Of a stretch of 52,895 nt of DNA, positions 6,020-52,385 are shown one piece after another. A program made the position numbers and the translations under genes. The stretch is from Escherichia phage LF82-10: sequence record PV660453; one strand, given 5' to 3'. Each line of letters opens with the position of its first letter. Positions within the stretch are counted from its first letter, which is position 1. The notes under the pieces are model-generated. The model made no database searches and was not told the DNA's origin. It saw only the letters and a list, made by a program, of their open reading frames with translations.

Positions 6020-6047
6020 TTGACCGTTTAGCAAAAAGTGCTATTAT
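6020..6047 (+). promoter_or_regulatory. sigma70-like promoter of major capsid gene (TTGACC-16-TATTAT) with TAGCA-box in spacer
   Basis: hexamers at 6020-6025 and 6042-6047; box TAGCAAAAAGTGCTA at 6029-6043. Confidence 0.5.
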
Positions 6048-9083: not shown

Positions 9084-9764
9084 ATGGCACTTCCTAACGG
9101 TTCACAGGTCTTCATTGAGCAGACACGATCCATAACCGAAGTTGAAGCAACGAGCATCACCAACTCGAAAGAGCCAGTTGCGACGGTTGCCGATATTGGC
9201 GATCTGGTAAATGGTGATTACGTGCTGGTTCTCGAATCAGTATGGGCAGGTCTGAAAAACCGCGTCCTTCGCGTCAAGTCTATTGATGCGCTGAAGGTAA
9301 CTCTTGAGGGTGACGGCAGCACGGACACGAGCAACATCAACAAGTTCCCGGCTGGCGGCGCATCAACGCTGGTGAAGATCACAAGCTGGATTGAAATCCC
9401 ATGTATCAGCGACATCGCCAAAACTGGTGGCGAACAGCAGTTTTACACCAAGCAGTGTTTAGCTGATGAGCGAGAGAAGCAAACGCCAACCTTCAAGTCT
9501 GCAACGTCGATCGGCTACACGTTCGATTTCGACTACGCAAACCCGATTACTCAACTCCTGATCGGTTACGACGAAGACGGCAAAACCCGCGCGATGCGTA
9601 TGTTCGTTCCAAAGGCGAGCTACCCGATCCGCACCTTCTCTGGCGTGCCATCGTTCGACGATGTGCCAAACACGGTGATGAACGAAGACGAAACAACCGT
9701 CCTCAACATTTCCCTTGATGGCAAGTATACGCACATGAAGGAATATGTTGCACCGACACCATAA
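9084..9764 (+). CDS. major tail protein
   Basis: 226 aa immediately upstream of the chaperone-tape measure block; followed by terminator 9768-9797. Confidence 0.6.
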   Translation: MALPNGSQVFIEQTRSITEVEATSITNSKEPVATVADIGDLVNGDYVLVLESVWAGLKNRVLRVKSIDALKVTLEGDGSTDTSNINKFPAGGASTLVKITSWIEIPCISDIAKTGGEQQFYTKQCLADEREKQTPTFKSATSIGYTFDFDYANPITQLLIGYDEDGKTRAMRMFVPKASYPIRTFSGVPSFDDVPNTVMNEDETTVLNISLDGKYTHMKEYVAPTP

Positions 9765-9767
9765 TCC

Positions 9768-9797
9768 GAAGGGGGGCTATTGCTCCCCTTTTTCTTT
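9768..9797 (+). terminator. intrinsic terminator after major tail gene
   Basis: GGGGGGC-TAT-TGCTCCCC then TTTTTCTTTT. Confidence 0.6.
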
Positions 9798-9840
9798 TGT
9801 GATTTAATACGCGAAACACAACCAATCAGAGGATTTAATT

Positions 9841-10158
9841 ATGTCATTCAAAGTTAAACTGTCCGAGCGCCTCCCTGACTTCCCGCTTGATGTGAAATTC
9901 AACCTTCCGAACGGCACCGAGGCCGAAATTAAATTCACCGTCAAATCACTGAAGGCAAGCGAAGTTCAGGAGCTTTACACCAAGGCTGGCGAGGGCACTG
10001 GCGCTGAGTTCATTACCGCGCTGGCTACCGGGTGGAACCTGGAGGATGAATTTAACGAAGCCAACCAGAACGAGCTGGTAGACAGCTACCCGGCTGTAGT
10101 TCTTGCGCTGGTTTCCGCATACATGGAAGCGCTAGCGGGGTATCGAGCAAAAAACTAA
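9841..10158 (+). CDS. tail assembly chaperone (lambda gpG-like)
   Basis: 105 aa, acidic; ends in slippery heptamer A_AAA_AAC (10149-10155) just before TAA; directly upstream of tape measure. Confidence 0.65.
   Translation: MSFKVKLSERLPDFPLDVKFNLPNGTEAEIKFTVKSLKASEVQELYTKAGEGTGAEFITALATGWNLEDEFNEANQNELVDSYPAVVLALVSAYMEALAGYRAKN
10149..10155 (+). other. -1 programmed ribosomal frameshift slippery heptamer A_AAA_AAC
   Basis: X_XXY_YYZ heptamer in frame of 9841..10158, 1 nt before its TAA; -1 frame is open into 10176..10469. Confidence 0.6.
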
Positions 10159-18700: not shown

Positions 18701-19278
18701 CCGACACTGAAGCCAGCATTACGCGAGTTGATAAAGCCATTGCTAGCGAGACTCAAGCCAGGGTTGAGGCAGATACAGCGCTTGGTGTTCGGGTTGGTAA
18801 CACTGAATCCGCCATCACGCAAAAGCTTGATTCATGGATTCAGAACGGGCAGCCGGGAGCGTCGTATAACGTCAAGTTGGGTATCAAGTACAACGGGCAG
18901 GAGTATAGCGCAGGGATGGGGATGCAGTTGGTTAGCGATCAGTATGGCGTTAGATCGCAAATCCTGTTTGACGCTGACCGATTCGCAGTTGGCAAGATTG
19001 AGAATGGCTCTATTCGTCAGTTGCCGTTTGTGATTGAGGGTAATCAGGTATTCATTCGTGATGCGCTGATTAAAAACGGCTCCATCACTAACGCAATGAT
19101 CGGAAACGTCATTCAGTCAAACAACTATGTTGCTGGTTGGGCTGGTTGGAGAATGGACAAGAACGGAAACCTTGAGATTAACGGCAGCGCCGGAAACGGA
19201 AGGCTGACCATTAACAACAACATCATTGCCGTATATGATGGTAACGGTGTGTTAAGAGTTCGAATGGGATTGTTCTAA
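15727..19278 (+). CDS. tail tip host specificity protein (lambda gpJ-like)
   Basis: 1183 aa; largest tail gene after K/I; C-terminal ~22-aa tandem repeats (EARxxAxxxLDAKFxG); own extended -10 promoter after terminator. Confidence 0.85.
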   Translation: MNKKVLVHGSKGGSPKPHTPQEMEDNLISINKIKVLLAISDGEIDPDFSLKDLYLNDVPVQSKEGTMNYDGVIAEFRPGTQTQSYIQGFTDTASEVTVNRALKQDNPFIFPVTNKSISAVRVKIFMPRGVKTESNGDMVGVRVEYAIDFAVDGGSYQEVLKDVIDGKTMSGYDRTKRINLPEFNDQVLVRVRRVTMDSTDARLIDEISVQSYAQVVDAKFRYPLTGLLYVELNSAMFPQMPNISVKKKWKLVKVPSNYDPVAREYHGTWDGSFKQAWSNNPAWVLYDLITNQRYGLDQRELGIDVDKWSLYEAGQYCDQLVPDGKGGTEPRYLCDVVIQSQIEAYTLVRDICSIFRGMSFWNGESLSIVIDRPRDASYIFTNDNVVGGSFSYTFASEKSMYTTCNVTFDDELNMYQQDVEAVFDLDASIRFGHNPTSITAIGCTRRSEANRRGRWILKTNLRSTTVSFATGLEGMIPMVGDVIAVADNFWQSNLTLSLSGRLMEVSGIQCFTHFRVDARPGDFIIVNKPDGKPVRRTIANVSADGKTIELNIGFGFAVQPNAVFAIDRQDLALQQYVVTGISKGDGDEEFTYSITAVEYDPNKYDEIDYGVNIDDRPTSIIDPDNMQPPENISVSSYSRIVQGMSVETMVIGWDKAQYASTYDVQWRKDNGNWINTPRTANTEVEVEGIYAGVYHVRVRSTSAAGNSSPWSSVVTVSLTGKVGKPGAPTSITASTDEVFGIRVKWGMPAGSEDTAYIELHQSKDGTPDNASLLTMIPYPQFEYWHAVLPAGYVNWYRARAVDRIGNVSDWSDFARGMASDDVDQILDVIKIDIEDSEIFKELAENAVDTANKIKDQAQTDIQNALANDYNLQWTRKQNGARKAEYGQAVILIANETEARVAAIEELRASINDDIIAQIKTIREAVANEEEARVKAVQELDAKFAGQIGDLQTATEASVSRLDEAIANESEARTQAISQLDAKFQGVIDGVKADTEASITRVDKAIASETQARVEADTALGVRVGNTESAITQKLDSWIQNGQPGASYNVKLGIKYNGQEYSAGMGMQLVSDQYGVRSQILFDADRFAVGKIENGSIRQLPFVIEGNQVFIRDALIKNGSITNAMIGNVIQSNNYVAGWAGWRMDKNGNLEINGSAGNGRLTINNNIIAVYDGNGVLRVRMGLF

Positions 19279-19282
19279 TAGA

Positions 19283-19312
19283 AAAGGGAGCCTTGCGGCT
19301 CCCTCTTTTTTT
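19283..19312. terminator. bidirectional terminator between J-like gene and Cor-like gene
   Basis: GGGAGCC-TTGC-GGCTCCC flanked by A-run upstream and T-run downstream. Confidence 0.6.
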
Positions 19313-19643
19313 ACATCACTTTATTGTAGATAACCGGGCTTCGGCTGGTTTGCTGGGTAATCATGTCAAGCTTGTATTCAGCGCCGCGATTCCACTCGAA
19401 GCGTAGCGTATAAGTGTTTACGTCGCCGTAGCACATTACGTGTTTGAACTTGCGCAGGTGCTTATCAAATATCACGTTTGTGCTTTCTTCAATATTCACC
19501 GTCCGATCCTGGCAGTTTACAACCGCCACGGTTGAGCCAGTAAGAGACATTCTGGAAGCGTCAACCGGATATCCGATATTAACGTTCAAAGCCATAGCGT
19601 TTAAAGGAGCTAAGAGAGCCATAGCGAGCATGATTTTTTCCAT
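19311..19643 (-). CDS. secreted protein, possible Cor-like superinfection exclusion factor
   Basis: ATG at 19643 (SD GAGGAA); signal-peptide-like N-terminus MEKIMLAMALLAPLNAMA; sits right after the J-like gene on the opposite strand; function speculative. Confidence 0.3.
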   Translation of the reverse strand: MEKIMLAMALLAPLNAMALNVNIGYPVDASRMSLTGSTVAVVNCQDRTVNIEESTNVIFDKHLRKFKHVMCYGDVNTYTLRFEWNRGAEYKLDMITQQTSRSPVIYNKVM

Positions 19644-19702
19644 TGGTGTTTCCTCGATTCGTTTATTTAAATTGATTATATCCACCAATCAGGGCGCGTG
19701 CT

Positions 19703-19717
19703 TAGCAATTCGTGCTA
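19703..19717 (-). promoter_or_regulatory. TAGCA-box (TAGCACGAATTGCTA) upstream of Cor-like gene
   Basis: -10 TATAAT at 19675-19680 (minus), 37 bp from box start; adjacent to stop of 19718..20368. Confidence 0.55.
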
Positions 19718-20368
19718 TTAGTTCCACCCAAGGAATCGAGCCATTGGAATCTTTAGGTTTCCGCGACCGTTGAAAATATCATTAAACCCTCGCTGATTTC
19801 GTCTGATCCATGTAGTCTGCAACTCCGAGCCAGTCCAGCGCATGAGGTTGCCAGAGTAACCAGAGGCAACGCCATCCGTTGACATTTCACCCATGCAGGA
19901 CTCCCACAGAAAGAATGGGTTGTAACCAGGTGATACGCTGGCAACGTTACCCTCAAGAGGCCAATTCCCGGCAACCTCAAGGAAGCCAGTTACACGAGGC
20001 ATTGAGGCAGCGCCCAAAGCAGACCAGATCAGTTGCCCGGAACCGTCGAACACGTCAAGCACGCCAGATGGAAAGTTTGCGTTTCTGGTTGTCCTGATCA
20101 CGCGGATTGAGTTTGGTAGGAACATATCAGATCCCGGAAACCCCCACGCGCCGTTAGAAAGAAATTGCACCCAATGCAAATATCCGTCTTGCTTCCTCGT
20201 GTTTTGGTTTAGGTAAGCCAGTGAGCTTATGTTGCCAAAAGGTGTGTTTAGGTTGTAGTCACCAGTATTTAAATATGACGGGTTGAAAGATGAGTGGTAG
20301 ATCGTGTGTTTCTGATCTGAGTTAATCATCATCGCCCCGGCGTTATTGTATACCTCAAAACCAGGCAT
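19718..20368 (-). CDS. hypothetical protein (MPG-paralog A)
   Basis: 216 aa, Asn/Gly/Ser/aromatic-rich; SD GAGGGGG; N-terminus paralogous to the next gene. Confidence 0.45.
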   Translation of the reverse strand: MPGFEVYNNAGAMMINSDQKHTIYHSSFNPSYLNTGDYNLNTPFGNISSLAYLNQNTRKQDGYLHWVQFLSNGAWGFPGSDMFLPNSIRVIRTTRNANFPSGVLDVFDGSGQLIWSALGAASMPRVTGFLEVAGNWPLEGNVASVSPGYNPFFLWESCMGEMSTDGVASGYSGNLMRWTGSELQTTWIRRNQRGFNDIFNGRGNLKIPMARFLGWN

Positions 20369-20377
20369 ATTGCCCCC

Positions 20378-20677
20378 TCAGTTAAATTTGTAAATTTCGA
20401 TATCCATCGTCACATCGTTAAACGGGTTGCTTGTTGGTAGGTAGATAACATCAACAGCATTCTCACGCGTTACGCAAGCGTAAGCACTCCCTATGTAGAT
20501 GTTTGCGTATTTGATGCAAGCAAACGAGTTGTAACCGTTTATTCCGACAACAGCAAAAGACACGATCGAAGTCGAGCGCGGGAACACGATTTGCTGACGA
20601 TGCACAAAGCGAGTGCTGAAATCTCCGAGATCCACAATCAGATTTCCCGACCCATCCCATGCTTGTAAACCAGGCAT
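20378..20677 (-). CDS. hypothetical protein (MPG-paralog B)
   Basis: 99 aa; SD GAGGTGG; N-terminus MPGLQAWDGSGNLIVD aligns with MPGFEVYNNAGAMMIN of the downstream gene. Confidence 0.45.
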   Translation of the reverse strand: MPGLQAWDGSGNLIVDLGDFSTRFVHRQQIVFPRSTSIVSFAVVGINGYNSFACIKYANIYIGSAYACVTRENAVDVIYLPTSNPFNDVTMDIEIYKFN

Positions 20678-23012: not shown

Positions 23013-23498
23013 ATGCCGCACATCATCACAGGTGAGATCAAAAAAGCCCCGTACACCAAAGACGGAAGCAACAATAACGGGCGATGGAAAATGTACATTG
23101 TCGATCTGAGTGAGCGCATGAAAGTGCGCAACCCTGACACACAGGCCGATGAAGTTGTTTACACAAACTACAAGGCAACCTTCTTTGCAAAAGAAAACGT
23201 CATGCAGTGGTACGATGAAGCGTTCCAGGTTGGCAAGGTAATCAGCGTAACGTGTGACACGCTGCAAATCACCAGCCGAGATCACAACGGCAATACGTAT
23301 CTTACGGCTGAAATGATCCGGCCTCAACTGACCTTCAGCCAGCGAGAGGCTCAGCAGCAGGGATGGGGGCAACCACAGCAGCCGCAAGGCAATCAGCAAC
23401 AAAGCCAGCACAGACCACCACAGCAGCGACCACAGCAGCGACCACAGCAGCAACAGCCACAGCAGGGAAATCAGTTTGACGATGACATTCCATTCTGA
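23013..23498 (+). CDS. ssb: single-stranded DNA-binding protein
   Basis: 161 aa ending in the canonical acidic SSB tail DDDIPF, preceded by Gln/Pro-rich linker. Confidence 0.8.
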   Translation: MPHIITGEIKKAPYTKDGSNNNGRWKMYIVDLSERMKVRNPDTQADEVVYTNYKATFFAKENVMQWYDEAFQVGKVISVTCDTLQITSRDHNGNTYLTAEMIRPQLTFSQREAQQQGWGQPQQPQGNQQQSQHRPPQQRPQQRPQQQQPQQGNQFDDDIPF

Positions 23499-23503
23499 CG
23501 GGT

Positions 23504-23536
23504 AAAAATAAAGGAGCCTTTCGGCTCCTTTTTTAT
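23504..23536. terminator. bidirectional terminator between ssb and tail fibre gene
   Basis: AAAAATAAA-GGAGCC-TTTC-GGCTCC-TTTTTTATTT. Confidence 0.6.
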
Positions 23537-25899
23537 TTCAGCAATAACGACTCAAGTTTAGCAAGGCGCTCTTCCATTTCCTCCATTCTGTTACCCATGT
23601 AAACCATAGCACAGGCCATATCAGTAAGCATGACGTTTGAATCAAGAGCTAGCGTATCGTCCTTAAATCCAGTCTCGATCTGCCTGGCAACGTACTCCTC
23701 ACCATTCTCGTTGACTCCGATAACATCTTCAAAGATCGGAGCGCCAGGGACTACTTTCACATACTGACTATCAACTTTATTCAAGTCCTGAGCAATCAGA
23801 CCGAATCTCTGTGTGTCAGATCCCTTATACTTGAACATGGTTGGGAGCCACTGCATTACGCGATCATAGCTCTCCTTTCCTTCGGTGTATTTGATATCCC
23901 ACTTAAGATCCCGGTCAGACGTTGGCGCTTTCTGGAATGTATACCCCCCATCCCATCCTCCACCCTGACCCCATGAGATAATATCTGATGATGGTGCATG
24001 GAATTCAAATCCGCGATGGTACGCACCATCACCAAGCATCTTAATTACTGCGCGAGGCCATCCGTTGTTCCCGCTAGAAATCATACCAAGAGAGGTATTC
24101 ATTCGATACCCGCCAGTTGATGTGGTTGCCCCTGAGATCAATGAAGCATATCCGGCATCATTACCCGTTACATCACCAGCAAAGAACGTACTCCCCATGT
24201 AATCATTTGGCTGCGCCCAACCTCCTTGAGTTAACTTACCAAGAAACCCCCTTGGAGAAGATATGTGACCGCCGTATGAGTTTATGAATTTAAACTCCTT
24301 CCAGTCACTTCCTTGGTTGTTCACTCCGATCTTGAAGTGATCAATATCAGTGCCACTACCGCGAACCCCCCCAATCTGCCAGTAACCAGAGTACCAGTTA
24401 CCTTGAACCAGGTTAACCCAACTATTAACAGAGCCATCACCAGCAGCGTTTTGAATCAGGATGTTTTTGTTTCCGCCACTCTGAGTTGAAACAACGATCG
24501 ATTTACCCTGCTTTGCCTCTACGTTTCCGTTTGTTGCAACCAGAGCGCCGCCGCTAATCGTTCCGACGGCTGTCAGCGATGCAACTCCGGTAATGTTCCC
24601 CGCCTCATCAAACTGATAGTAGTTCCCCTTTCCTCCAGCCGTGTTTGCCGTGTGAATCGTTGTCTTTACAACGCCGCCTTGTAGTTCATTGTAAAATCTT
24701 GAGTTTGATTGCAGCGTTGCGCCGTCAGCAGAAAGCCTTTTACTCTCAATCAGCCCCCCACTAGTTGCTGAGCCAAGTGTTGTAGCCTCCACGCCTCCAA
24801 ATCTCACCGCTTGACCCGAGCCGATACCAAGATTGTTTCTTGCTCCGTCAGCAGTTGTTGATCCAGTGCCACCAGATCCGATAGGGATCGGGATTACATT
24901 TCCGTTACTATCCTGCCACTGGAAAATCCCATCATCGCCAATCGTCAGCCTTTTTGTTCTATCTGGCGTGCTAATGTAGTTACGCGTTCCAATGTGGCGC
25001 AGCCAGTCAAGATCAAGGTTCGTCCTCGCGGCTTGTACGTCAGTAAGATCAGATAGGTTATTTGCCTTCTTTAGCTGTTCGTCAGGGTTAGCCGTTGCTG
25101 CGCGGTCTGCTTCAGCCTTGGCTCGTGCTGCATCGTCACGAGCGGCGGCGGCAGATTGCCCGGCGCTGGTTTCGCTGTTTGCTGCATTCGTCTCGCTTAC
25201 CCTGGCGGCATCCTTGCTGGCTCCGGCTTGGGTTGCGGCAACTTCGGCGGCTTGACGATGCGCGGCAGCTTCGCCGTTAGATTGAGCGGCTGAGCTTGCG
25301 CTATTACCCGCATTTGTCTCGCTAGTCTTCGCATTGAATGCAGAATCGGCGGCAGCGTTCTTTGCGCTTGTTGCGGTTGCAGCGTCAGCGGCGGAGCTAG
25401 ATGCAGATGCGGCAGCGGCGTTTTTATCTTGCTGTGCAGACTGAGCAGATCCGGCGGCGGCGTTCTTGCTTGCCTCAGCTTCGTTTGCGTTAACTTCAGT
25501 ACGATCAGCATCAACGCGAACGGCAGACTGAAGATCTTTCAGCTCTTGCAGGTTAAAGTTCTTGAAGAAATCCATAGCCTCCTCGATCACAGTTTCCTTG
25601 CTTTGGTAGTAGCGCAGAGTTTCAGCCACATCTTGAGCAAGGCCATCAACAGTGATTGAGTCATGCAGCAGGATTACATAGTTCGTACCATCCGGCACAA
25701 CTGCATCATCCGTTTGGATCGCTCGCATTTCCGTGTCACTCACGATCGCGGAAATAGTAACCAGCGTTAGTGGTTGAGTTAAAAACACCATCGTTGCCCC
25801 AACGCGAATCAGAGACAGCTTGTCTTGCCATTTCGTATCAACGCCAGTTACAACGCCGTTAGCGGCCAATCCCGCCGTTCCTCTACGATAAATCGCCAT
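23533..25899 (-). CDS. tail fibre with C-terminal intramolecular chaperone (S74-like) domain
   Basis: ATG at 25899 (SD AGGTG); Ala/Ser/Asn-rich low-complexity segment; C-terminal region (DRDLKWDIKY...LIAQDLNKV...LAKLESLL) resembles auto-cleaving fibre chaperone domains. Confidence 0.75.
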   Translation of the reverse strand: MAIYRRGTAGLAANGVVTGVDTKWQDKLSLIRVGATMVFLTQPLTLVTISAIVSDTEMRAIQTDDAVVPDGTNYVILLHDSITVDGLAQDVAETLRYYQSKETVIEEAMDFFKNFNLQELKDLQSAVRVDADRTEVNANEAEASKNAAAGSAQSAQQDKNAAAASASSSAADAATATSAKNAAADSAFNAKTSETNAGNSASSAAQSNGEAAAHRQAAEVAATQAGASKDAARVSETNAANSETSAGQSAAAARDDAARAKAEADRAATANPDEQLKKANNLSDLTDVQAARTNLDLDWLRHIGTRNYISTPDRTKRLTIGDDGIFQWQDSNGNVIPIPIGSGGTGSTTADGARNNLGIGSGQAVRFGGVEATTLGSATSGGLIESKRLSADGATLQSNSRFYNELQGGVVKTTIHTANTAGGKGNYYQFDEAGNITGVASLTAVGTISGGALVATNGNVEAKQGKSIVVSTQSGGNKNILIQNAAGDGSVNSWVNLVQGNWYSGYWQIGGVRGSGTDIDHFKIGVNNQGSDWKEFKFINSYGGHISSPRGFLGKLTQGGWAQPNDYMGSTFFAGDVTGNDAGYASLISGATTSTGGYRMNTSLGMISSGNNGWPRAVIKMLGDGAYHRGFEFHAPSSDIISWGQGGGWDGGYTFQKAPTSDRDLKWDIKYTEGKESYDRVMQWLPTMFKYKGSDTQRFGLIAQDLNKVDSQYVKVVPGAPIFEDVIGVNENGEEYVARQIETGFKDDTLALDSNVMLTDMACAMVYMGNRMEEMEERLAKLESLLLK

Positions 25900-25922
25900 T
25901 GTCAACACCTCTTGTTAGTAAA

Positions 25923-25937
25923 TAGCACGAATTGCTA
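25923..25937 (+). promoter_or_regulatory. TAGCA-box (TAGCACGAATTGCTA) over predicted start site of tail fibre transcript
   Basis: minus-strand -10 TATAAT at 25944-25949 lies upstream of box; operator-like position. Confidence 0.45.
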
Positions 25938-25965
25938 AAACGCATTATATCAGGCATTCAGGCAA

Positions 25966-25990
25966 TAAAAAACCCTCCGAAGAGGGTTGT
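25966..25990 (-). terminator. terminator for primase transcript (minus strand)
   Basis: minus-strand reading CAACCCTCTTCGGAGGGTTTTTT. Confidence 0.5.
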
Positions 25991-25998
25991 TGTTCGAT

Positions 25999-26934
25999 TT
26001 ACTCCAGTCTGTCAATAAGAGATTGCGGATCGTATAGCCTACGCTGCATCCCCTGGCGGAAATTGTCATTGTTCGGCAAGATTACCCTCAGATCCCGATC
26101 GTCAGCCATGCACAGGGTTTGGTAATCGGTAGACAGGCAAGCAACGCGAAGCTCACGATCTCCTTTGTATCGCCAAGCCACAATTTCAAGGTTCTCGGGC
26201 GTGAAAGTGACCCATACTTCCTGATTGGTTGCCGTCGCTACGCGATGCCCTTCGATTATGTCGCACACCAGATAAATAGAGCCAGTGCCAGCACCAAGCT
26301 TAACAACTGAACCGCGAGAATGATCGCGAGCCATAAAAGAATATTCCCCACTTTCATTAACAAACAGGATATTACACATTTCATCATCCAATCCTTCCGG
26401 TTGAGCGAGATAGCACGGATATGCATGAATAAGCGATTCTCCGCCATTCTCGCGAGGTTTTACGCCTACAATGAATGATTCATCCAATAGGCACTCATAA
26501 ACGCTTAGAGGCGTGCTGGCTCGCAATTCAGTGCGCTCCATAACAGCCATACAGGCATCGTGATCAACTTGCTTGCCAATATTGGCATCGGTTGTTCTCG
26601 CTATGCGCTTGTAAGCCTTCACGCGGTACTCTTGCGGAACCTTGCCCAAGAAGCGCCCCAGGATGTTAACCGCCTCGCTGTATGGCTCACCAGTCAGCTT
26701 CATGACCCAGCCAATGCCTTTATCGTTACCGCATGCGTTACAGATCGCCCCGCCGTCACCCTTCGACTCAAGGTTATCAGTCCAGCGGAAGCGGTCATTG
26801 CCGCCACAGTTTGGGCATGGCTGGTGTTTGCCATTGAATACGGTTGAGGGAAGAGCGCATATTGACTGCAACGCCTCGCGCCATAATCCTTTCATGTATG
26901 GCAAAACTTCCTCTTTCTGGTACATCATCGACAT
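25999..26934 (-). CDS. putative DNA primase
   Basis: 311 aa; N-terminal zinc ribbon CPNCGG-(x19)-CNACG like primase zinc-binding domains; adjacent to helicase module. Confidence 0.5.
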   Translation of the reverse strand: MSMMYQKEEVLPYMKGLWREALQSICALPSTVFNGKHQPCPNCGGNDRFRWTDNLESKGDGGAICNACGNDKGIGWVMKLTGEPYSEAVNILGRFLGKVPQEYRVKAYKRIARTTDANIGKQVDHDACMAVMERTELRASTPLSVYECLLDESFIVGVKPRENGGESLIHAYPCYLAQPEGLDDEMCNILFVNESGEYSFMARDHSRGSVVKLGAGTGSIYLVCDIIEGHRVATATNQEVWVTFTPENLEIVAWRYKGDRELRVACLSTDYQTLCMADDRDLRVILPNNDNFRQGMQRRLYDPQSLIDRLE

Positions 26935-26989: not shown

Positions 26990-27448
26990 TCATTGATTAG
27001 CTTTTCGTGCTTTCAGTGTTTTCCAGGATGGTTGCTCCGGCTTGGTTTCTAACTCTTCCTTTCTCACCACGCGCAGCATGTGACGCTTTTTGCATCGGAC
27101 TGTTAGCGGCTTGCCGTTGCCGTCGAATGACAGATCAGGGCGGCACCACGACGCGCGGAAACCTCCGCCATTTCGTTTATATGCGTTGTGCGCCAGTTGC
27201 GCGCCTCGCGCTGAAATCATGCCGCGTTGCCGCCACTCATAAACAACCTGAAGCGAAACGCGCAATTCTTTCGCCAGCTTTGCAGGTGAGCCGTAGAATT
27301 CAAGGATGGTATCTAATCTAGCCTTAAGCCCGGCCTTTACTTCGTCTCGTAAAACATAGTAACCTACTGGACGTTTTCGGCGCTTAGCGTCACTTCCGCG
27401 CTTCGTTCCATTGTTCCCATTAAGCGTGCGTTTATCTACGGTTTCCAT
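26990..27448 (-). CDS. Cro/CI-type HTH DNA-binding protein (candidate regulator)
   Basis: 152 aa, basic; HTH-like segment LAKELRVSLQVVYEWRQRGMIS; its leader contains a TAGCA-box. Confidence 0.55.
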   Translation of the reverse strand: METVDKRTLNGNNGTKRGSDAKRRKRPVGYYVLRDEVKAGLKARLDTILEFYGSPAKLAKELRVSLQVVYEWRQRGMISARGAQLAHNAYKRNGGGFRASWCRPDLSFDGNGKPLTVRCKKRHMLRVVRKEELETKPEQPSWKTLKARKANQ

Positions 27449-27461
27449 AATTATTCCTCAA

Positions 27462-27476
27462 TAGCATTTTTTGTTA
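27462..27476 (+). promoter_or_regulatory. TAGCA-box variant (TAGCATTTTTTGTTA) in divergent HTH-helicase control region
   Basis: -10 TGTATTAT 27496-27503 for helicase at +36; same box lies between minus-strand -10 (27499-27504) and the HTH gene SD. Confidence 0.55.
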
Positions 27477-27540
27477 AAACTGGATTGTTGAGGCGTGTAT
27501 TATATCAATCAAACGAACGAACATCAAAGGCATTAACACG

Positions 27541-29610: not shown

Positions 29611-30026
29611 TTACTGACAAGGGCGATTATCTTGAATATTACACCCCTGATAAGGGGTGTACCCTGAAGGAAGAGACTCACCAGGTTAACGGCGTTTCGT
29701 GGCTAAAGTACCACTACCCAAACCTGATGTTTTGGCACACGGTCAACGAGGGGCAGAAGCACATAAACACAGCCCTAAAAGATGAGCAAGCCGGGCTTAA
29801 GAAAGGTGTCAGCGACTTCGTATTTCTGATTGGTCATTTCGATCGGAAATATTGCTTTGGGGCTATTGAGCTGAAGCGCACCAACAAGAGCGGAAAGTAC
29901 AAGGCATCACCAGTCAGTAAGGAGCAGAAAGCTTTCCTTCTCGGTGTGCGTGAACGTGGGGGGTTCGCGGCTGTGGCTTACGGATTCGAGGAGTTGAAGA
30001 AAGCCGTTGAGGACATGATGAAATAG
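29607..30026 (+). CDS. VRR-NUC domain nuclease
   Basis: 139 aa; PD-(D/E)XK-like core (DFVFLIG...GAIELK) consistent with VRR-NUC; overlaps helicase stop. Confidence 0.55.
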   Translation: MITDKGDYLEYYTPDKGCTLKEETHQVNGVSWLKYHYPNLMFWHTVNEGQKHINTALKDEQAGLKKGVSDFVFLIGHFDRKYCFGAIELKRTNKSGKYKASPVSKEQKAFLLGVRERGGFAAVAYGFEELKKAVEDMMK

Positions 30027-40088: not shown

Positions 40089-40154
40089 TTTGCTATCCTT
40101 TTGTGTGCTTCGTTTCGATGGAGTAATAATAGCAAAAGCCAGATCGGGAGTTTT

Positions 40155-42960: not shown

Positions 42961-43019
42961 AAACACCAGATCGGGGCTATGCCATAATAGCCCTACACCA
43001 ACAAAACGAGGTTAGCACA

Positions 43020-44427: not shown

Positions 44428-44484
44428 AAACTGCCCGGAGCGATTCGGGCATAATGATTTCACACCAAACGAGAGGAAGTGAAA

Positions 44485-50917: not shown

Positions 50918-50978
50918 AAACTCGAAATCGGGGTTGCGATATAGTAACCCCATCGAAACGCAACGGAGCAAACGAAAA

Positions 50979-52297: not shown

Positions 52298-52385
52298 GGA
52301 AGGTTGGCAGAGTGGACGATCGCGCACGGTTGCTAACCGTCAAGCCGGAAACGGCTCAAGGGTTCGAATCCCTTACCTTCCACCA
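52298..52385 (+). tRNA. type II tRNA, probably tRNA-Ser (anticodon GCU)
   Basis: perfect 7-bp acceptor stem GGAAGGT/ACCTTCC, discriminator A and encoded CCA; T-arm AAGGG-TTCGAAT-CCCTT; long variable arm GCCG-GAAA-CGGC; anticodon loop TTGCTAA; one C-C mismatch at base of anticodon stem. Confidence 0.7.

Follow-up and report, generated by a model that had tools for sequence, protein, structure and literature searches.

The gene for the lateral tail fiber of Escherichia phage LF82-10 (PV660453), analyzed here within a window that is the whole stretch of 52,895 nucleotides (nt), carries between its promoter and its start codon an inverted copy of the 21-nt repeat of the T1-like phages. This placement, past the -10 element, suggests a role for the repeat as the target of a regulatory phage protein that can repress genes as well as activate them. 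Judged by the literature that could be searched, it is new that the repeat falls into two positional and orientational classes, that the fiber copy belongs to an operator-like class together with the copies at the major capsid and regulator genes, and that a specific candidate regulator can be named. LF82-10, at 52,895 bp, is one of five 53-kb phages that were isolated on E. coli LF82 and assigned to a new genus cluster of the Drexlerviridae (PMC12509680).

The repeat was reported in phage TLS (German et al. 2024) and is also found in T1, Rtp, and Rogue1 (PMC11447400). That study describes the repeats as running with transcription and lying some 76 nt before start codons, and suggests stoperators, enhancer sites, or UP elements as possible functions (PMC11447400). 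The boxes of LF82-10 are this same direct repeat, aaATAGCACnnnTTGnTAAAA. Searched as TAGCAN5TGCTA with at most one mismatch, the window contains 24 boxes where 1.18 would be expected, and none of 100 shuffles reached 24. Most copies conform to a canonical unit, in which the box is always oriented with transcription (by orientation scoring) and a -10-like hexamer begins exactly 22 nt past it; T1 shows this spacing at 13 of its 21 boxes and the Webervirus KP1801 at 13 of 16, compared with 19 of 24 in the window. The canonical box spans about -49 to -35, with its center near -42, and a -35 hexamer at the right distance is lacking. Position -42 is that of class II activators, from which lambda cI activates PRM. 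A hairpin follows the canonical box and is annotated as a terminator in T1. That the Weberviruses lack the regulon, as their 0-2 boxes per 12-kb locus could imply, was considered and rejected, since the whole KP1801 genome holds 15 canonical copies, in the early arms.

The canonical units are compact. In about a dozen, the TAG of the box is also the stop codon of the upstream gene (the boxes of such units start at 30024, 33028, 37308, 38992, 43744, 44413, 45322, 45760, 47630, 49889, and 50903), so that stop codon, repeat, hairpin, -10, and leader fit in about 75 nt between genes. The leaders past the canonical -10s are of two conserved C/A-rich types, (t)ACACCAACAAAC...AGGA and CATCGAAACGAA...GGAG (for example 42990-43010, 44455-44475, 40090-40110, and 50945-50965), and may be unstructured translation-enhancing leaders or processing sites. 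In their order of stop codon, repeat, hairpin, -10, and leader, these units are similar to the PeSL cassettes of T4-like phages (composite promoter-terminator repeats); the two have no sequence relationship and belong to different phage families, and the fiber copy is not such a unit.

The elements at the start of the fiber gene are as follows, in the direction of its transcription.

25971-25988, minus strand: intrinsic terminator of the primase gene, from a terminator scan; its T-run is invariant in the 14-lineage alignment.
25944-25952, minus strand: extended -10 element TGaTATAAT, identified from the sequence, with no good -35.
25923-25937, plus strand: inverted copy of the repeat, perfect; on the fiber strand it reads TAGCAATTCGTGCTA at 25937-25923, 6 nt past the -10.
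25908-25913, minus strand: Shine-Dalgarno sequence AAGAGG, 8 nt before the ATG, identified from the sequence.
23533-25899, minus strand: lateral tail fiber gene, an open reading frame with its ATG at 25899, encoding a precursor of 788 amino acids (aa) and 83.1 kDa.

This layout shows a fiber gene with its own predicted sigma-70 promoter, insulated from upstream transcription by the predicted primase terminator. The -10 is assigned to the extended type because a TG at 25952-25951 precedes the TATAAT at 25949-25944. The initial annotation had described a -10 followed by a TAGCA box over the predicted start site, in a placement unlike that of the boxes elsewhere, and all of its coordinates proved correct: the box covers about +1 to +15 of the predicted transcript, after the -10, whereas canonical boxes end 22 nt before theirs. 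Two points go beyond that description, namely that the fiber box is inverted relative to all canonical copies and, as discussed below, that the location of the gene is the norm for the family. On the plus strand, positions 25920-25940 read AAATAGCACGAATTGCTAAAA, identical at 21 of 21 positions to the TLS repeat DR2, yet this copy points away from the fiber gene, comes no closer than 23 nt to the ATG, and lies past the -10, so that it has neither the direction nor the roughly 76-nt distance of the TLS repeats. The TLS fiber gene itself has no copy. Nor does the fiber copy form a canonical unit, as no -10-like hexamer is found at the 22-nt offset on either strand. We also considered a second fiber promoter that would use the TGCTAtttac of the box itself as an extended -10; it was rejected, as the hexamer TATTTA has no final T, there is no -35, and transcription would start inside the Shine-Dalgarno sequence.

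Read on the plus strand, the fiber copy is a perfect canonical repeat, AAATAGCACGAATTGCTAAAAC, which raises the question of an antisense or divergent transcript that would start from it and enter the primase gene at the 3' end. We regard this as very improbable. The fixed 22-nt offset holds no -10 in any lineage (it holds AGGCAA in the window and TACCTG in T1, and is likewise without one in the lineages with a 12-nt gap), which led us to reject a canonical promoter on this strand; in addition, no plausible plus-strand open reading frame comes next, and the primase terminator hairpin lies in the path.

Conservation of the fiber promoter was examined in 80 IMG/VR loci that contain the fiber N-terminus, and 14 such regions were aligned. 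A TGnTAnnAT element directly past the terminator is present in nearly all 80. The fiber promoter of T1 (TTGCAA-17-TGaTAAAAT, 7 nt, TAGCAATTCGTGCTA, Shine-Dalgarno sequence) has the same layout as that of LF82-10, and an inverted box between the extended -10 and the Shine-Dalgarno sequence is found in the nearest relative (L008), in L029, L019/L034, the entire T1 group, L069, L079/82, L084-87, and L042. From the terminator T-run to the Shine-Dalgarno sequence, no block of the aligned regions is as well conserved as the box, and the surrounding spacer diverges. Conservation of this arrangement in T1 and several other lineages argues for function, and the alignment shows the pattern of a copy under purifying selection in several lineages. 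Depending on the lineage, the box follows the -10 at a distance of 6, 7, 12, or 15 nt, with no helical phase kept, which fits steric blocking and not stereospecific activation.

This pattern bears on one alternative, that the box at the fiber promoter is a neutral leftover: an intergenic repeat, mobile or recombinogenic, could have inserted there in an ancestor without consequence for expression. In favor of this, the box is missing in Tlsvirus, including TLS, and in L020, absent in all Weberviruses, and decayed in the Changchunvirus-like loci (TAACATGCAACACGG), although these phages keep the extended -10 and still make a fiber from this kind of promoter. Reports on PeSLs describe those repeats of T4-like phages as shuffling points (PMC2839356, PMC4122927). 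A neutral remnant, however, would hardly be the best-conserved block from T-run to Shine-Dalgarno sequence at loci whose fiber N-termini are only 53-70% identical, nor would it be expected to keep consensus quality through changes of subtype (AATTCG, AAAAAG, AAAACG), always in the inverted orientation. Moreover, it is about 400 nt into the gene, and not at the box, that the locus becomes variable (PMC8594841), and on the same grounds we rejected the box as a recombination boundary of the variable fiber locus. Neutrality is, on balance, an unlikely explanation.

Wherever it is present, the box is part of the predicted transcript, 4-10 nt from the Shine-Dalgarno sequence and at a nearly constant distance (17-23 nt) from the ATG, and it could also act in RNA, as a 5'-terminal hairpin that stabilizes the fiber message or tunes ribosome access. 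In isolation the box does form a 5-bp hairpin of -3.8 kcal/mol. The stem is weak, however, and does not appear when the leader in the window is folded to its minimum energy (leader z-score +0.36). In L069, L084-87, and L042 the first arm is TAACA, creating an A.C mismatch that is uncompensated, and the rigid 22-nt spacing of canonical boxes to the -10 is a property of DNA. We rejected this reading on the weak stem, its absence from the leader fold, and the uncompensated variants, and give it little credence.

Inverted boxes recur at two other promoters, listed here with the candidate box-binding protein.

6029-6043, minus strand: second inverted box, in the spacer of the major capsid promoter, from sequence and orientation scoring.
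27462-27476, plus strand: box common to the regulator and helicase genes, which diverge from it; at the helicase promoter it has the canonical position (-49 to -35).
26990-27448, minus strand: Cro/CI-like helix-turn-helix regulator of 152 aa (T1 gp23 family), the candidate box-binding protein, from PHROG matches and fold.

The capsid promoter (6020-6047) reads TTGACC-gtt-TAGCAAAAAGTGCTAttat, a near-consensus sigma-70 promoter in which the inverted box takes up the 16-nt spacer; the TGCTA half of the box supplies the extended -10 (TTGACC-16-TGcTATTAT). This arrangement recurs in almost all of 80 Drexlerviridae capsid loci (L088-L167), and the box is degenerate in the Weberviruses (TAACGATTCGTGATA). 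The capsid copy is listed without discussion as DR7, on the negative strand, in Supplementary Table S1 of the TLS study (PMC11447400).

At the regulator gene, the -10 of the helicase promoter (TATTAT, 27498-27503) overlaps face to face the -10 of the strong leftward promoter of the regulator (TTGATG-17-TATAAT, 27527-27499). The box at 27462-27476 is therefore inverted with respect to the regulator gene and lies in its leader, 13 nt from the ATG. It is present at the regulator start in every lineage examined, including the Weberviruses, and the TATTATA double -10 (27498-27504 in the window) recurs in T1 (box 36445) and KP1801 (box 20688). Polymerase recruited to the helicase promoter would exclude the promoter of the regulator. 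The capsid and regulator copies thus provide two parallel cases of an inverted box inside or past a strong sigma-70 promoter, which supports an operator function. T1 has a third inverted box (18835-18849; L007), upstream of a tail-assembly gene past the major tail protein; the counterpart region of the window (9764-9841) has no box, and contains only a terminator and a TGaTTTAAT-like element.

As fiber and capsid proteins are needed in quantity late, an element conserved at both promoters might be expected to raise expression rather than lower it, and the box could be positive at the fiber gene too, as the site of a downstream-acting factor or modified polymerase, or as a loading site that raises late fiber transcription. 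We judge such a role improbable. Both promoters look strong unaided (TTGACC-16-TGcTATTAT for the capsid, TGaTATAAT for the fiber), and the phase between -10 and box is not conserved. We know of no bacterial activator that works from +1 to +15 or inside a 16-nt spacer, and activation of the MerR type requires over-long spacers.

The protein encoded 1 kb upstream of the fiber gene is most likely the binder of the repeat, as judged from its modeled fold and its location. It matches phrog_2856, a family of transcriptional regulators, with an E-value of 2.7e-75, and has weak Pfam matches to P22_Cro, YdaS, and HTH_17. Its AlphaFold2 model has a predicted local distance difference test score (pLDDT) of 87.6, and the folds nearest to its helical core are Xfaso-1 Cro (template modeling score 0.73 on the target), N15 Cro bound to DNA, 186 CI, lambda cI, and the controller proteins of restriction-modification systems. 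Because the Foldseek E-values are weak (best 0.02), these matches identify a helix-turn-helix of the Cro/CI type and nothing more specific. The box, an inverted repeat of two 5-nt arms separated by five positions, suits a dimer. All 95 homologs with at least 50% identity are on contigs of about 50 kb or on short fragments; as far as these homologs indicate, the regulator, like the box, is confined to the family of T1-like phages and strongly conserved there. Since the box does not vary between lineages, it offers no covariation with the recognition helix of the regulator.

We therefore favor, tentatively and with somewhat less than even confidence, the reading that the box is an operator for this Cro-like regulator, activating from -42 and hindering polymerase at the fiber, capsid, and regulator promoters. 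Relative to the predicted -10s, the sites have the geometry of operators, with inverted sites over or after core promoters and the others near -42. Bound at about +1 to +15 of the fiber promoter, the regulator would hinder the binding or escape of RNA polymerase, and fiber transcription would be lowered or delayed. The same protein at -42 of about 20 other promoters would assist polymerase, as lambda cI does at PRM, and the major capsid promoter, with the box in its spacer, and the leader of the regulator itself would be held down likewise. Release could come, speculatively, through titration of the regulator as genomes with about 24 boxes each replicate.

Several points weigh against an operator function. 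The element is dispensable, as the fiber promoters of Tlsvirus, Changchunvirus-like phages, and Webervirus have no box or a decayed one. The link between regulator and box is one of co-location and fold, and the repeat could instead be a target of some host factor or of a different protein of the phage. A repressor made by the phage is absent at time zero, so that the strong capsid and fiber promoters would fire before it accumulates, and repression would later have to be lifted. The canonical boxes could also be UP-like or stoperator-like elements, as the authors of the TLS study suggest (PMC11447400). Finally, no usable data on transcription starts or expression time courses came out of our literature searches on Drexlerviridae and T1.

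A close parallel to an operator of this kind is lambda cI at OR, where the protein activates PRM from -42 and represses PR by overlap. Lambda cI and the controller proteins of restriction-modification systems resemble the LF82-10 arrangement in having a Cro/CI-fold helix-turn-helix and an inverted-repeat site that lies near -42 at promoters without a -35, and over or past the core promoter elsewhere, including at the gene of the regulator itself. LF82-10 differs in that the phage is virulent, that its roughly 24 sites are single and dispersed rather than arranged as tandem operators, and that the site is asymmetric, with a strict orientation at the predicted activated promoters. The stoperators of mycobacteriophage L5, an analogy drawn by the TLS authors (PMC11447400), are likewise numerous short asymmetric sites in short intergenic spaces, co-oriented with transcription. 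L5, however, is temperate and its sites silence the prophage, whereas the T1-like family is virulent, so that its repeats are not prophage-repressor sites of the L5 type; in contrast to the L5 sites, the fixed 22-nt relation of the canonical sites to the -10 points to initiation and not to elongation.

The fiber protein itself is composed of four regions.

25513-25899, minus strand: N-terminal anchor domain, aa 1-129, from tblastn and identity to other genera.
25075-25512, minus strand: Ala/Ser/Asn-rich shaft, aa 130-275 (38% Ala, 13% Ser, 8% Asn).
23920-25074, minus strand: Gly-rich distal receptor-binding region, aa 276-660, from homology (phrog_5481, E-value 1.5e-142).
23536-23919, minus strand: C-terminal intramolecular chaperone domain, aa 661-788, 14.8 kDa, from Pfam PF13884 and a profile search.

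The gene is annotated as 'tail fiber protein' in the sibling phages LF82-11 and LF82-19, and its product matches PHROG tail-fiber families with E-values down to 1.5e-142. The anchor is the only part of the fiber that is conserved across the Drexlerviridae: a tblastn search with the N-terminal 130 or so residues matched 880 phage records, essentially all T1-like, with faint similarity in lambdoid side tail fibers, and identity to representatives of T1, Tlsvirus, Changchunvirus, and Webervirus is 58-69%. Klebsiella-phage depolymerases of solved structure (7vz3, 7vyv, and 7lzj) likewise have a match to the anchor at their N-terminus (E-value about 1e-45). The distal 385 aa are 40-50% identical to the lateral fibers of the Drexlerviridae phages JohannLBurckhardt and FritzSarasin and of the T5-like phages DaisyDussoix and ECOP18, and identity of this part to any other record is at most about 50%.

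Both the leftward 788-aa fiber with its low-complexity shaft and the chaperone-like C-terminus had been proposed in the initial annotation, and the domain search that it called for bears out the latter. Pfam Peptidase_S74 (PF13884) matches aa 661-714 at the extreme C-terminus (E-value 3.3e-7; 30.9 bits against a cut-off of 22), and is present in all seven close homologs found except one truncated fragment. A phmmer search of the PDB with the full-length fiber matched through the anchor only; the chaperone match required the isolated C-terminus, which matches the C-terminus of an L-shaped tail fiber (8hqz_d, E-value 0.0066), and a profile of eight C-terminal sequences, which matches 8hqz_d (E-value 2.6e-4) and the distal subunit of a phage long tail fiber (6f45_A, E-value 1e-3). 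The domain opens with S661-D-R-D-L-K666 (SDRxxK), in which Ser661 and Lys666, five residues apart, align with a Ser and a Lys in both of these structures and are conserved in each of the six homologs that cover the cleavage site. We take a Ser and a Lys in this spacing to be the catalytic pair of the endosialidase-type intramolecular chaperones (endoNF S911/K916, T5 pb1). Predicted autocleavage before Ser661 should yield a mature fiber of 68.3 kDa and a 14.8-kDa fragment. This C-terminal domain of about 128 aa is the feature in common with T5 pb1 and other PF13884 chaperones; the autocleavage of the LF82-10 fiber is a prediction, and the similarity to solved structures is weak (best E-value 2.6e-4). 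At the DNA level the chaperone domain is 74% identical to the L-shaped fiber genes of T5-like Salmonella phages. Its nearest relatives (P0096-P0101) are mostly proteins of 150-250 aa that consist of a fiber tip and a chaperone, some of them encoded by bacteria (Citrobacter, E. coli), so that tip and chaperone together also occur as a gene of their own.

Judged by these predicted domains, the gene is the lateral tail fiber gene of a T1-like phage, with an anchor, an Ala-rich shaft, a T5-pb1-like receptor-binding part, and a C-terminal chaperone. It resembles the other lateral fibers of the Drexlerviridae (T1 ST26, TLS gp55, the 'lateral tail fiber protein' of the BASEL phages) in its conserved N-terminal 130 aa and variable distal part, and differs from them only by the usual allelic differences, in the distal part and, among the siblings, in the length of the shaft. 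A 2.7-kb query spanning the fiber locus matches Escherichia phages LF82-11, -12, -40, and -19 at 100% identity. Across the 20.8 kb compared, LF82-10 and LF82-11 have a single difference, an in-frame indel in the shaft, which is 28 aa longer in LF82-11; the shaft of LF82-19 is 49 aa shorter than that of LF82-10. Relative to the longest form, LF82-10 is without 84 bp (28 aa) between 7-bp repeats CCGCCGC (indel zone 25252-25460), and LF82-19 is without 231 bp (77 aa), overlapping the LF82-10 gap, between 5-bp repeats GCCGC. Because the 816-aa form carries both segments, these are two independent deletions, with microhomologies of 7 and 5 bp at their ends and sizes that agree with the differences in genome size, as far as short-read assemblies, from which all of the sibling indels are drawn, can be relied upon. 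The shaft, in tolerating in-frame deletions, and the fiber promoter are practical handles for host-range swaps in phage engineering.

The neighbors of the fiber gene are as follows.

23013-23498, plus strand: ssb.
23510-23531, both strands: bidirectional terminator between the converging ssb and fiber genes, from a terminator scan; the same pair is annotated in T1.
25999-26934, minus strand: primase.

The fiber gene is thus located between ssb and primase, 4.25 kb from the end of the tail-tip gene at 19278, in agreement with the initial annotation, which had put it 4 kb from the tail genes. The implied oddity of a fiber gene in the replication module, on the opposite strand, did not withstand comparison with other genera. 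The gene order of LF82-10 is that of T1, and in a comparison of synteny among T1, a Tlsvirus (KMB25), and a Changchunvirus (PaulSarasin), all three share the order regulator, primase, fiber, and then the converging ssb/erf/recE genes. Because these genera share it, the seemingly odd placement is the usual one in most of the family; in Webervirus the block is rearranged, with the fiber gene after ssb on the same strand. A description of this locus in 13 Drexlerviridae similarly reports that only the 5' end of the gene is conserved, while its flanks (recombination genes on one side, primase and helicase on the other) are syntenic (PMC8594841). Within its family, then, the fiber gene is ordinary both in its domains and in where it lies.

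Two further observations concern other parts of the window. Directly past the homolog of tail-tip gene J, in the position of the receptor-binding/cor locus of the family, are three small leftward genes (19311-20677, minus strand), with a canonical box unit at 19703-19717 between the second and the third. The early region encodes one tRNA-Ser (anticodon GCT; 52298-52385, plus strand), in agreement with the one tRNA listed for these phages.

For the family as a whole, the operator function proposed here could be extended to a larger claim, which we consider unlikely: that one Cro-like protein of the T1 gp23 family, with the repeat as its only operator, runs the whole developmental program through titration by replication. 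If this were true, a forward box at -42 would switch on about 20 early and middle promoters that have no -35, while a backward box in or past strong sigma-70 promoters would restrain the capsid, side-fiber, and regulator genes. As the roughly 24 sites per genome titrated the protein, early genes would fade and virion genes would be released, an early-to-late switch counted by replication and operating without a late activator. T1 is a classic phage, and the two classes of box, the copy at the start of the regulator gene, and the base-exact spacing of the canonical units turn the question of its gene control into a short list of experiments.

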